A DNA stretch of 64,000 nt from Endozoicomonas sp. SCSIO W0465 (GCF_023716865.1 NZ_CP092417.1:4876862-4940861), one strand, 5' to 3'; positions 3,001-12,000 are shown, counted from the first letter of the stretch. Program-made: the numbers.

Positions 3001-6000
3001 ATAACAAAAGTTAATGATATCTGACCAGCGTGCCGAGCCTTTTCGTGAAAACCAGCGGAACAGGGTAAGTGCCAGCTCGCCGGTAAAAACCAGCAGTTCC
3101 ATTGCCTCATCACCCAGACGGGCAACCCGATTGACCAGGTGATGATACAGGGATGGATGTCTTGCCGGTAGCGCCTTGTTGGGGGGGACGGTATTAGCAA
3201 GCCTGAACAAATCGCCGACATCCTCAGGCAGACCACTGAGGTCAAACTGACAATGGGAAGACTCAAGCATTCGCTGGCAGGCCAATAGCCACGCCAGCAA
3301 TCTGGAGTCCCATGAAAAATCATCACCGGTTACAAAGGCAACTGTCTTTAATTGACCAAAATCGAGCAAAGCGGCAACCTGATCCAGAGCTGGTAAAACA
3401 CCACTGGCTGCCCAGCTTCCCTGCAAGGTTATCACAACATTCGCAACATTTGGTTCAGACACCTTATCAACGGTCAGTGTCGCCTGGTTCATGCTTTTTT
3501 AATGCCTTGAAAAAGGCCCAATAATAACAGGAAGAAGCGATTAGTAGGCAAGCCTGCCAATCACTCCCTGCACAGTTCTTGTTTTACTCTATGGCATCAT
3601 CTCGTACTGTCTCTTATCGAACGGGAACTATTTGCTGCCTATGTTTTCTTAATTAGTTCATACAATATCCAAATAAGCTTCGATCAGGTAATGCTCGCAA
3701 TTATGGATCAAACATTAAGAGTGATTCACTCATGCAGCCCGCCATGTTTTAAGTCAATCCCCCAGGCGGAACGCCCGATATGGCTGGGACGGGAGACAGA
3801 GAGTGTCAATCCAATCAAAACCAGAGAATGTCCTGTTACCACTGTATCTAAGCCCACGCGCACTTCATCCGTATGGACCCCTACCTCATCAGAGCTGGAA
3901 AAAATGGGCACTGCTGCCTTGTACAACACGCTGATTGCCACCAACCACAACCCCGGGCCCAAGCCCAGGTTTGAAGAAAACCCACTATGTGAGGCTGTAC
4001 TCCAAATTGTGACAGGCAAAAAATATCTTGCACAACCAGATACAGTGGAACCACTTGCTCCAAGTACTTTGGGGGGAATACCCATCTTTGAAAATCCCAT
4101 CATCAACGACAACAGCGAGCCTGACAAACCAGACAGTTCACCGATGGAAACCGATTCCTCTGATCAAGAGGAGTACTTGAGATCTGATATTACCGTTCTT
4201 GAACAGGCAACTGTTGATCAGGCAAATAAAGCCAAAACATCTTCAGCAACACCTGATATATCCTTTGTCAACCACTCTGCCATTATAAGCACGCTAAGAG
4301 CACTGAGGGGACAAGAGGTAACCGCCAACTTTGACTTTATCCATGGAAACCTTAGCGCAGGTTTTGCCAGTTTTGCTCCCAAGGGGAGTAAACTGTGCAT
4401 CCAGATATCATTCAAAAAAGATTTAACCCCTCAGGGAATACCGGCACAAATGCTTCAACAACAGTACGAAATATCAGGTAATTTATCATTTGATGATGAT
4501 GCTATGGTAAAGAGGGTTACCTCGATACCTGCCTGGTGCTTTGTGAAAGAGTCCTGGCAACCTGCTTCTGTCAACCCGATTCATCTTGCACGAGGCAGTA
4601 TAAAAATTTCGAAAAAAGAACCAATGAGACATCATTTAATAAACCACCCTCCCTTAACTAAAGGGCAGCAGGAAATTTATGATACAATGACGTCGCTTTT
4701 TAACAGACAACTCAATACCGACATTGTCAGCCTGAAAAATAAACCAAAACCGAAAACCCCTTTAAAGGGGCAGACCTGTTTTTATCTCAGAACGGGCCAA
4801 TTGCTGTTTATCAGTTTCAAAATCCATCCTGCACAAATACCCTTGGGAATAGATTCATCCGTCTACCTGAAATACGGTAAAATTCTTGGCAATTTGAAAT
4901 ACGACCCAAAATGGTTATTCTCTCAAATAGTAAATAATTCAACTTTACTTCATCCATCACGTCCCGGAACGCTTCCATATGCAAACAAAATTTTTTTTCC
5001 TTCCAGTAGCATATCGTTGTATTTTCAAGACAGGAGAGCCCGTTGACGAATCCGCTCACGGTATACAGGCCAAGATCATCCCAATACAGAGGTCAGTTGA
5101 ACATCTCTGAAATACTTAAGGTAATTGTTTCAATCTCCTGAACACTGACCGGTACTACCAGAATCGTATCATCCCCTGCCACACACCCCATAACCCCAGC
5201 TTTAACACCAATGGAATCCAGCAGTCTGGCGATCATCTGGGCAGCGCCCGGGCTGGTCTTGATCACAATCATGGACTCATTATGAGCAACTTCTTCCACC
5301 AGGTCTTTTACCGCAATACTGGAATCCATCTTGCCCAATTCAGGAGGCAGGCAGTAGACCAGCTCATTCAGTGCATTGCGCGCCCGGACCGCACCAAAAC
5401 GGCTGAGCATGCGGGACACTTTGGACTGGCTGATATTATCAAATCCCTGCGCCTGCAGAAGGGTAACAATATGGCTCTGGGACCCGCAGCGTTCCTCTTT
5501 TAGTAGCTGGCGGAAAGAGCGAACCAGGGCATCCTGTTTTTGGCTAGTCATCGTCGTCAAATAACCTTTGATAAAAATGCAGTCTACTGATTATTCAATA
5601 GGCTAAAAGCCTTCAGTGATAAAACATTTTCTTATAAACAGTTCTGAAATATGTGACAATTATAGAGTACGATCATATAAAAATGAATTTTTATTCACTT
5701 TTTTGTTGATTTTATCCAGTTCATACCAGACAATCCAGCCTAAATCTCAACAGGCAAAAAAGATTCAGGCAATGGGTATCGCAGTACAAAGCCTAAGCAA
5801 GTCCTTTGGTGACCACCAGGTACTGAGGGATATCAGCTTCAGCATCAACAAAGGTGAAACAACCGTATTACTGGGCTCCAGTGGTGCGGGCAAAAGTACG
5901 CTGTTACGCATGCTAAACCTTCTTGAGAGCCCGGATCAAGGCACTCTTAACATAGCTGACATGGCGTTCAGCTTCCCACAGGAGACACCTTCTACAAAGC

Positions 6001-9000: not shown

Positions 9001-12000
9001 TCGGTTTCACACTTGAAGGCTTTTTTGGCCAGTTTACTGGTCAGCGCTTCTGCTTCTTTCTCAGACTTCTTTAGCATTTTTTTCAGCAGTGTTTTTTGTT
9101 CGCTCTTTCGAGCCTGCTCGCTGCGGACCAGAATCCAGCGCTGGGAGACACCCGCATGATCTGACAGCATTTCATGACTCTCATAGCCCTCAGCACCCTC
9201 CACTGGTGTCATTTCACAAGAAGCGACACTGTCAATCAGTTCTCTGGCTTCTTTGATTTTTGACGGAACCCGGGTGATAAATTGCTGGCCCTGCTGATGA
9301 AGTATCTGTACGTTATCTGTTGTATAAAGTGCTGCATCACCAATCAGGTAGCGATTATTCAGGGCTTCCCGGTAGGATTTCAAATGGCTGCTGATGACTT
9401 TTTTAAAGTTTTTATTGTCGTTTACGTTGCCACTGGACGCTTTCATAAAAACGGGAATACCGGCCTGATTTTCCGTCATCATCAGCAGTATTGCCTGGTT
9501 GAGCTCGGGTCGATGATCCCTGCTGTATCCACGACAGAGTTTGATACAGTGCATATCTTCTTCGTCGACGTCAGATTCGCTGTTATAAACGCCGTCCACA
9601 TGCAAGCTTGTTGAGTCAAGGTTCAGAGCCTTGCACGGCAGTTTTAAGACATTCACTGCCTTGACAGCCAGCGATAAATAGACCTCACTTACATCCAGTT
9701 CAAAAAGCTGATCCAGGGCTCTGCCGAGTACACTGTCGTTAATGTGTTCGGGTTTAATACCGGGCCTGATGAGTTTATCCAGCGGTTTATCAGCATGAAA
9801 CTCCGGGAACATATGAAGCGTGCGGGCAGTGAACCCAAGGCCGTTAAGCAGCATTGATACTACGGTTTCGCCAAAGGAAATATTCCGGTGTTCAGATTGG
9901 TTAGGAACCAGGGAATCCAGATGATTAGAGATACCGAGTTCTTTGCACATACCGGCAACCAAACCCATATGATCGATACGTTGAATGTGGAACTGATGAG
10001 GATGCATTGGACATGTTCATTCTGAGAATTTTTTACATTTTAGCCGGTGTAGGGAAATTCTCAGATTGAGTGCTGAATGACGGGTCTATCTGGAAAACGG
10101 GGAAATTGTCGAGGAAGGGACTGCCGAACGATTTACCGCTCCAAGAACCCATGCTTTTCAACGTTACCTTCAACATTAATTCAACCACAAGCAAAAACCA
10201 GCTGTCAGTAAGGAAAGCCCGATGAAAAAACTAGTTGCCGCTGTTGCCCTGGCCGGTGCTGCCATCACCTCCCTATCGTTTTCCGCGCCAGGCCAGGCTC
10301 AGGACACCATTCGCTTTGGCATGGAAGCGACCTACCCGCCTTTCGAGTTCTTTAATGAAAAGAATGAGCTGACGGGCTTTGACGTTGAACTGGCCACCGC
10401 CATCTGTGCTGAACTGGATACCACCTGTGAGTTCAGCAACCAACCGTTTGACAGCCTGATCCCCGGGCTTAAGTTCCGCCGGTTTGACGCGGTCATTTCC
10501 GGTATGGATATCACACCAAAACGGATGGAACAGGTCGCCTTTACCCAGCCCTACTATGAAAACTCAGCCATTTTTGTTGCTGCCAGCAAAAATGACTTTA
10601 AAGAAGCCAAGGATCTGATTGGTAAAACTGTCGGCGTACAAAATGGCAGTACCCACCAGGCCTACCTGATCGACAAACTGGAAAAGCAAGGCGTAAAAAC
10701 CCGTCCATACGACAGTTATCAGAATGCCCTGCTGGATATGACCAATGGCCGGGTTGACGCAGTTTTTGCCGATACGGCGGTTGCCCGTGAGTGGCTGGTT
10801 CAGCAGAGCAAAGGGCAATACCAGACAGTTGGTGAAGAAGTAAAGGATGCCAACTACTTCGGTATTGGTATGGGTATCGCTGCCCGTAAGGGTGACCTTC
10901 TGGTCGAAAAACTCAATACCGCACTGGCCGGGGTAAAAGAGAGTGGTCTTTACCAGCAGCTGCATGCCAAGTATTTCAACTCTGCAGAAGTGAGGTAACT
11001 GTGAGCCTGACCGCTCTCTTCGCCCAAGCGACCGTGATGACCCTGGGGCTGGCCCTGTCATCACTGGCCCTTGGCCTGTTAATGGCCATGGCGTTTTCGC
11101 TTGCAGAACTCAGCCGTTACAAACCCCTTGCGCTGGCTGCCAGCACTGTGGTTGCGGTAATGCGCGGGCTTCCGGAAATTCTGGTGGTCTTTTTCATCTA
11201 TTTTGGCTCAACTCATGCGCTATTTCTGGTGACCGATGAGTTTGTTGAGATCAGCCCATTTGTTGCGGGTACTATTGCCCTGTCGTTAATTTATTCGGCC
11301 TACGCCTCACAAACGCTTCGTGGCGCTTTTATGGCTATCCCCAAAGGGCAAACCGAAGCGGCAGTGGCACTGGGGATCAGTCGCAGCCACTGTTTTTTCC
11401 GCATCATCCTGCCGCAGACCTGGCGTCATGCTCTGCCCGGTTTGGGTAACCAATGGCTGGTTCTTCTGAAAGATACTGCGCTGGTCGCCCTGATTGGTGT
11501 CCATGACCTATTGCTCCAGGCCAGGATGACCGCTGCCAGCACCTATGAGCCATTTACCTGGTATGGTGTTGCTGCCTTGATTTACCTGGCAATTACCCTG
11601 ATCAGCCAAAGCGTACTGGAGCGGATGAAATCACGCGCTAATCGACACCTGACTTCCAGTCACAACACTGCTGAAATATCGGTTGAAAAAGCAGTAAGCC
11701 CCAGTGAGGCTACCCCATGAATATGGACTATTTACCGGAGCTGCTGAAAGGTCTTGGAACCACAATGGAACTCACGCTGGCCAGCCTGTTTACCGGGCTC
11801 GTGCTGGCTATCCTGTTCACCACTGTACTTTCCCTGAAAGTAAGGGCTCTGACCTGGCTGGTCAAACTTCAGATTTTACTCTTTACCGGCACGCCACTGC
11901 TGATCCAGATATTTCTGATTTAGGACTTACGCATTGACAACAGGCTCTAAAATTTGATAATGCCAAAAAACAGATGTCTTCAGGGATGAAAGTGAGAACT

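Follow-up and report, generated by a model that had tools for sequence, protein, structure and literature searches.

An IS1634-family element with a nested group II intron interrupts artP in Endozoicomonas sp. SCSIO W0465

Introduction

Insertion sequences (ISs) of the IS1634 family generate target duplications of 5-6 bp, and group II introns are bounded by the textbook consensus 5′ GUGYG ... AY 3′. RmInt1, an intron of class D (IIB-like), relies on long recognition through its exon-binding sites EBS1 and EBS2, and its homing is specific for its IS. Among bacterial group II introns, residence inside an IS element is a classic arrangement, with RmInt1 as an example (PMC3035460). Bacterial introns of class C (IIC) use short recognition through the intron-binding sites IBS1 and IBS3 together with a hairpin determinant, and their specificity is limited, with multiple sites (PMC3898094). 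Endozoicomonas genomes are known for an abundance of IS elements and group II introns and for numerous genes disrupted by insertions; for E. montiporae, 36 group II introns are reported, along with IS-related genes in the hundreds and 56 genes that insertions have inactivated (PMC4781883). Here we describe the artP gene of Endozoicomonas sp. SCSIO W0465 within a stretch of 64,000 nucleotides (GCF_023716865.1, NZ_CP092417.1:4876862-4940861), referred to throughout as the window, where artP is split by an IS1634-family element that is itself interrupted by a group II intron.

A preliminary description of the window, made by a model from the sequence alone, had proposed that artP was split by an IS1634-like element with an intact 6-bp duplication, that a group II intron had invaded this IS near one end and antisense to the transposase, and that the arrangement recorded at least two successive mobility events. 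Our analysis supports this account and revises it at one point, the relation between the intron and the end of the transposase gene. Two nested insertions are present with their hallmarks intact, and removing each of them restores the reading frame of its host. It is very probable that artP has experienced two nested mobility events, transposition of an IS1634-family IS and insertion of a IIC intron within that IS, and we prefer to place them in that order.

Results

An IS with intact termini splits artP

The artP frame that opens at 5772 breaks after 6419 and restarts at 10090, where it reads LENGEIVEEGTAERFTAPRTHAFQRYLQH and reaches its stop by 10179. The two parts of the gene, the target site duplication (TSD) and the terminal inverted repeats (IRs) of the insert are as follows.

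5772-6419, + strand: artP 5′ fragment, codons 1-216, ending ...ASRVVY, with a match to Pfam ABC_tran
6414-6419: left copy of the TSD, GTCTAT
6420-10083: insert, 3664 bp including the intron
6420-6433: IR at the transposase 3′ end, CCGTCATTCAGCAC
10070-10083: IR at the transposase 5′ end, GTGCTGAATGACGG
10084-10089: right copy of the TSD, GTCTAT
10090-10179, + strand: artP 3′ fragment, 29 codons (LENGEIVEEG...YLQH) and the stop

Joining 5772-6419 to 10090-10179 yields a 245-amino-acid (aa) ArtP that matches the NCBIfam ArtP equivalog NF008338 with 357.7 bits over model positions 1-242 of 242, and ArtP is the top-scoring family for the rejoined protein by a margin of ~100 bits over the next. A database search found ArtP orthologs of 242-249 aa in Endozoicomonas and Vibrio (64-90% identity), which read RVVY-LENGEIVEEG...YLQH across the junction without a break. 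Across this junction the rejoined protein is identical to P0149, P0151, P0159 and P0170. It had been noted at the outset that the split would be doubtful if ArtP proteins naturally ended at RVVY; all orthologs continue into LENGEIVEEG.

The IRs are 14 bp long, perfect, and lie directly inside the two GTCTAT copies; the clean bounds, their coordinates and the insert size of ~3.66 kb were all reproduced as first described. A perfect 14-bp IR and a 6-bp direct repeat positioned exactly at the break in a conserved frame cannot be attributed to chance. No other occurrence of the 14-bp repeat was found in the 64-kb window, with up to 2 mismatches allowed. Since the base following each GTCTAT copy is also shared, we considered a 7-bp duplication, GTCTATC, and rejected it because three related IS copies have duplications of strictly 6 bp; the seventh matching base is taken as chance.

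The preliminary description had suggested comparing the locus with related strains in search of an empty site, and one is found in a related Endozoicomonas contig (L087) with an intact argR / artP-artI-artQ-artM region in the same gene order. The L087 DNA aligns to window positions 5093-6420 and 10084-10982, and the two aligned segments overlap on a single GTCTAT(C). Judged by this alignment, L087 represents the empty artP site, in which the gene is uninterrupted and GTCTAT occurs once.

In its present state the artP open reading frame (ORF) extends into the IS up to 6482, adding 20 foreign residues. The NCBI protein P0155, labeled 'ATP-binding cassette domain-containing protein' and assigned to Endozoicomonas sp. 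SCSIO W0465, is 236 aa long and identical to this truncated ORF, including the 20 IS-encoded residues, which places the artP insertion independently on record. Because the conserved C-terminal strand and helices are missing, we infer that an ArtP without its last 29 residues, and with 20 IS-encoded ones in their place, is inactive. What NCBI holds as an ordinary 236-aa protein would thus be an IS-truncated pseudogene, for which a disrupted-gene flag is probably due.

The interrupting element belongs to the IS1634 family

The transposase encoded by the insert scores 342.1 bits against the IS1634 family model NF033559 (cut-off 100), which upholds the IS1634-like assignment, and it carries the domains DUF4277 (127.7 bits) and DDE_Tnp_1 (48 bits). 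The nearest transposase on record is 93% identical. Relatives of the IS were collected in a scan of one genome per species, which returned 122 relatives, with 79 loci kept. The closest of these, all in Endozoicomonas, are L001, L002 and L012, with 88%, 85% and 80% protein identity. These copies are 1732-1756 bp long, share the termini CCGTCATTCAGCAC with the window IS, and have the 6-bp duplications GTATAT, ATTTAT and TTACTG on their flanks. When the 79 loci were searched for the intron described below, only degraded remnants of another group II intron came up, in several pieces with 72-80% identity, at L006 of Endozoicomonas sp. ALC020 (9345-10989); they are outside an IS1634-family copy, at a distance of a few kb.

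The IS contains a group II intron with exact boundaries

Within the insert, a group II intron encoding a reverse transcriptase (RT) lies on the + strand, with the following parts.

6498-6501, + strand: IBS1 (CUUG), formed by the final 4 nt of the 5′ exon
6502-8432, + strand: group II intron, assigned to bacterial class C (IIC), 1931 nt, 5′ GUACG ... 3′ CCCGAU
6711-6714, + strand: EBS1 (CAAG), in a domain I hairpin loop, placed by the D1D4-3 alignment and a pairing search
7101-8363, + strand: intron-encoded RT/maturase, 420 aa, no endonuclease domain, YCDD motif
8366-8393, + strand: domain V, placed by the RF00029 alignment, with CGC replacing the usual AGC triad
8397-8430, + strand: domain VI, whose branch-point A (8426) is bulged and stands 7 nt before the intron ends

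Covariance models support the intron on this strand, as had been proposed: Rfam group-II-D1D4-3 (RF02001) matches 6615-6780 (+) with 128.3 bits (gathering 32), and group-II-D1D4-1 (RF01998) matches 6903-7007 (+) with 58.6 bits (gathering 35). The RNA of domains V and VI folds with -39.1 kcal/mol (z = -3.5). Two independent lines of evidence fix the exact boundaries at 6502 and 8432. First, the DNA of related, uninterrupted ISs aligns up to 8433/8434 and restarts at 6501, and subtracting 6502-8432 makes the lengths equal. Second, Endozoicomonas sp. GU-1 and E. acroporae have eight further copies of the intron (L080-L086, ~97% identity) at sites that are unrelated, and their match begins at intron base 1 and ends at base 1931. 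The more distant copies L089 (79%) and L090 (68%) likewise cover bases 1-1931, and all 10 family copies begin GUACGC and end CCCGAU. On the + strand, the IS exons flanking the window intron read ...CTTTCTTG before it and TAATCC... after it.

The RT, encoded within domain IV, scores 399 bits against TIGR04416 (cut-off 300), with RVT_1 and GIIM the only domains found and no HNH domain. It is 98% identical to an E. acroporae protein, and its YCDD motif is common to 18 related RTs. Among solved structures, it matches the GsI-IIC RT best (460 bits, E 6e-137, full length), followed by the E. rectale IIC RT (358 bits), LtrA of class IIA (141 bits) and the T.el4h RT chain (6me0, 'Maturase reverse transcriptase'; 128 bits), which we take to be of class IIB. 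This ranking, the 420-aa endonuclease-less protein, a non-coding intron RNA of ~670 nt and the CGC of domain V together place the intron in bacterial class C. As a multi-copy family with near-identical members and an intact RT, it appears to be active in Endozoicomonas.

The intron removes the end of the transposase

The intron divides the IS into two segments and truncates its single gene.

6420-6501, - strand: IS segment left of the intron, 82 bp, with the native last 20 codons of the transposase (6442-6501) and its TGA stop (6439-6441)
6434-6462: hairpin in the left IS segment, with a perfect 12-bp stem
8433-10083, - strand: IS segment right of the intron, 1651 bp, colinear with uninterrupted IS homologs
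8424-10007, - strand: truncated transposase ORF, 527 aa, closed by two codons (IG) and a stop (8424-8432) that belong to the intron

Without the intron, the IS measures 82 + 1651 = 1733 bp, and its homologs are colinear across 6501/8433. The position of the intron near one IS end and its antisense orientation relative to the transposase agree with what had been described; owing to this orientation, the intron would not be spliced from the transposase mRNA. Excising 6502-8432 extends the transposase from ...HVVGL by 20 residues to the stop at 6439-6441, for a total of 545 aa, and five close homologs are exactly 545 aa long (100% coverage). The restored 20-residue C-terminus is identical to that of P0270 and near-identical in the other homologs, and the ending ...YQEIYS is kept in relatives of 50-65% identity.

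The preliminary description stated that the intron's 3′ end overlaps the last transposase codons. This stands for the ORF as now read, whose last two codons and stop are supplied by the intron, but the transposase gene itself is broken 20 codons ahead of its native stop. Given that the closing IG and stop are intron sequence, homolog matches are predicted to end at residue 525, and homologs match the 527-aa ORF only over residues 1-525. Loss of the conserved last 20 residues has probably impaired the transposase.

Order of the two insertions

We prefer an order in which the IS arrived first and the intron second, because a conserved end of the transposase is cut off by the intron and because neither the 79 related IS loci nor a metagenome scan showed a further IS with the intron in it. 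In the first event, the 1733-bp IS1634-family IS would have transposed into artP at codon 215/216 by DDE cut-and-paste or copy-in, with a staggered 6-bp cut leading to the duplication of GTCTAT. In the second, the 1931-nt IIC intron would have entered the IS by reverse splicing at a point 82 bp inside one end, antisense to the transposase, and would then have been copied into DNA by its own endonuclease-less RT. The target would have been chosen by pairing of EBS1 CAAG with IBS1 CTTG, together with T as the first base of the 3′ exon. Since artP and the intron are both on the + strand, the intron could be expressed by read-through from the artP promoter. A scan of the region for promoters and terminators gave a signal no better than shuffled sequence and carries no weight here.

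Alternatively, the intron may have entered the IS elsewhere, and the 3664-bp composite of IS and intron may then have moved into artP, mobilized by the truncated 527-aa transposase or by an intact copy acting in trans. The IRs and TSD would be equally intact under this reverse order, the anatomy of a single copy fits both orders, and a multi-copy intron family that appears to be active in the genus suits a composite as well. However, the intron is present at 0 of the 79 related IS loci, a search of metagenomes for the 5′ junction between IS and intron, allowing degenerate IS positions, found nothing, and no further copy of the artP-inserted IS was found within the window. The composite would also have to move after the intron had cost it the 20 residues at the transposase C-terminus, which even relatives of ~50% identity conserve (...YQEIYS), a loss that probably crippled its own transposase. 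We regard transposition of a ready-made composite as unlikely, though the most serious competitor, and favor an IS that already resided in artP when the intron entered it.

Target choice by the intron

Comparison of the 10 insertion sites shows a 5′ exon ending in (C/T)TTG and a 3′ exon starting with T as all that the sites have in common, with nothing conserved further upstream. L080 and L089 have the loop CAAAGA and an exon end of UUUG, a compensatory change at the fourth pair (CAAG/CUUG to CAAA/UUUG), and this covariation among sibling introns shows the predicted IBS1/EBS1 interaction to be a 4-bp pairing. At L080, L081, L082, L089 and L090, and in weaker form at L083, the intron is preceded by a GC-rich hairpin, often with a T run, whose end is 9-20 nt upstream. 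L084 and L085 are without an adjacent strong hairpin, like the window copy, for which the nearest strong hairpin is the one at the IS end (6434-6462), ending 39 nt upstream. We considered this IS-end hairpin as the class C determinant, but its distance exceeds the 9-20 nt seen in siblings, and a canonical determinant is not evident at the window site. Sibling introns also interrupt long frames, in the sense orientation at L084 (988 codons) and antisense at L083 and L085, suggesting that antisense insertion into genes is normal for this family.

L082 (2400-6265; Endozoicomonas sp. GU-1, CP114886.1) contains the IIC intron twice, as complete copies that abut directly in head-to-tail arrangement. 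This tandem is consistent with re-insertion at the hairpin and CTTG 5′ junction that the resident copy had retained.

If the intron homed specifically into this IS, as RmInt1 does into ISRm2011-2, the association of the two elements would be systematic. The pairing in the window copy does reach a perfect 6 bp, EBS1 CAAGGA (6711-6716) with the 5′ exon UUCUUG, and is followed by T. However, 8 of 8 sibling copies are elsewhere than in this IS, in genes or intergenic regions with no relation to it, and the related ISs, none of which carries the intron, read CCTG before and C after the intron position and thereby mismatch EBS1. Sibling sites unrelated to the IS largely refute homing of this kind, and we rejected it as very improbable. 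The mismatched and intron-free relatives, as well as the low target specificity of class C introns, point to an association between intron and IS that is opportunistic rather than the outcome of IS-specific homing.

We speculate, with little confidence, that in this lineage of IIC introns from Endozoicomonas the need for a hairpin, which defines class C targeting, may have been loosened, and that the lineage may integrate at any accessible (C/T)TTG followed by T, which would account for the copies within ORFs in either orientation (antisense in the window IS, L083 and L085, sense in L084). As a corollary, expression of the intron at this locus could be under the ArgR-controlled artP promoter. 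If true, such a lineage would be an unusually promiscuous gene-disrupting retroelement and would add to the erosion of symbiont genomes.

Four observations weigh against the interpretation of the locus as an artP gene split by an IS and a IIC intron within it. The score of the rejoined ArtP, 357.7 bits, is slightly below the 369-bit equivalog cut-off, and the RF00029 match to domains V and VI (8363-8432, +) reaches 36 bits with a gathering score of 40. The 5′ end of the intron, GUACG, has A at position 3 where the consensus is GUGYG, while the AU at the 3′ end fits AY. Lastly, 5-6 of the 8 sibling sites have a GC-rich hairpin 9-20 nt upstream, and the window copy does not. An assembly artefact or chimeric join is the least credible explanation and can be set aside, as the TSD, the IRs and the intron boundaries are base-perfect, both reading frames are restored, and NCBI has an independent record, under Endozoicomonas sp. 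SCSIO W0465, of the truncated ArtP together with the tail that the IS encodes.

The art operon and other features of the window

The ORFs neighboring artP match the ArgR, ArtI/J, ArtQ and ArtM models. The last gene of the same operon, artM (window 11717-13494), is split at 11922/13033 by a second, unrelated IS, and L087 also shows the empty artM site.

11923-13032: IS701-family element in artM, 1110 bp, with its transposase at 11974-13026, terminal repeats GGACTTACGCATTGA and duplication TGATTTA

With the art operon struck twice, in artP and in artM, arginine uptake by this system has probably been lost. A 451-aa ORF (window 3691-5046), which has no Pfam match, directly adjoins argR.

Elsewhere in the window, two copies of an IS1595-family (ISXO2-like) element, at 26944-28053 and 34467-35576, are each 1110 bp long, 99.9% identical and directly oriented. 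Between them are ~6.4 kb that include four ORFs of > 200 aa, and the pair with the enclosed segment may be a composite transposon. A 1145-aa ORF on the - strand (59506-62943), for which there was no convincing Pfam match, contains an array at 59898-62121 of 15.4 tandem copies of a 144-bp (48-aa) unit with ~83% identity. Since 63165-64000 is 92% identical to 59155-59991, a paralogous gene starts at the window edge. A 1166-aa ORF (window 55437-58937) has no Pfam match.

Discussion

The locus is a clean example of known phenomena and not a new kind of system. Its only mildly unusual point appears to be that a IIC intron occupies sites with no hairpin next to them, and it is chiefly of value to annotation and to an account of the genome's natural history. 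For an apparently active Endozoicomonas IIC family it yields exact boundaries, the pair of EBS1 and IBS1, and a collection of insertion sites, which could serve studies of target choice.

Members of the IS1634 family, such as ISVa17 of Vibrio anguillarum and the elements encoding 545-aa transposases in Endozoicomonas and Shewanella, share with the element in artP a single ORF, a length of ~1.7 kb, terminal IRs starting with C, a 6-bp TSD, and matches to NF033559, DUF4277 and DDE_Tnp_1. Unlike them, the window copy holds a 1931-nt intron 82 bp from its end and has a transposase that is missing 20 residues.

The intron resembles the IIC introns GsI-IIC of Geobacillus stearothermophilus, B.h.I1 and O.i.I1 in its RT of ~420 aa without an endonuclease, its RNA of ~670 nt, the CGC of domain V, a 4-nt IBS1, a single-base IBS3, the lack of a conserved IBS2, and its many sites. 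Several of its siblings also lie directly past a GC-rich hairpin and T run, in line with the hairpin determinant described for this class (PMC3898094). It differs from those introns in that the window copy, L084 and L085 are in ORFs without an adjacent strong hairpin, in the 5′ end GUACG, and in an RT motif of YCDD rather than YADD.

RmInt1 in ISRm2011-2 of Sinorhizobium meliloti is likewise an endonuclease-less group II intron that is nested in an IS and behaves as a retroelement rather than as a gene-expression intron (PMC3035460). In contrast to RmInt1, the window intron is assigned to class C and has a 4-nt IBS1, and the IS would be just one of many unrelated targets. At the level of the genome, artP and artM, each split by an IS, resemble the insertional inactivation reported for E. 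montiporae and add one more instance of it.

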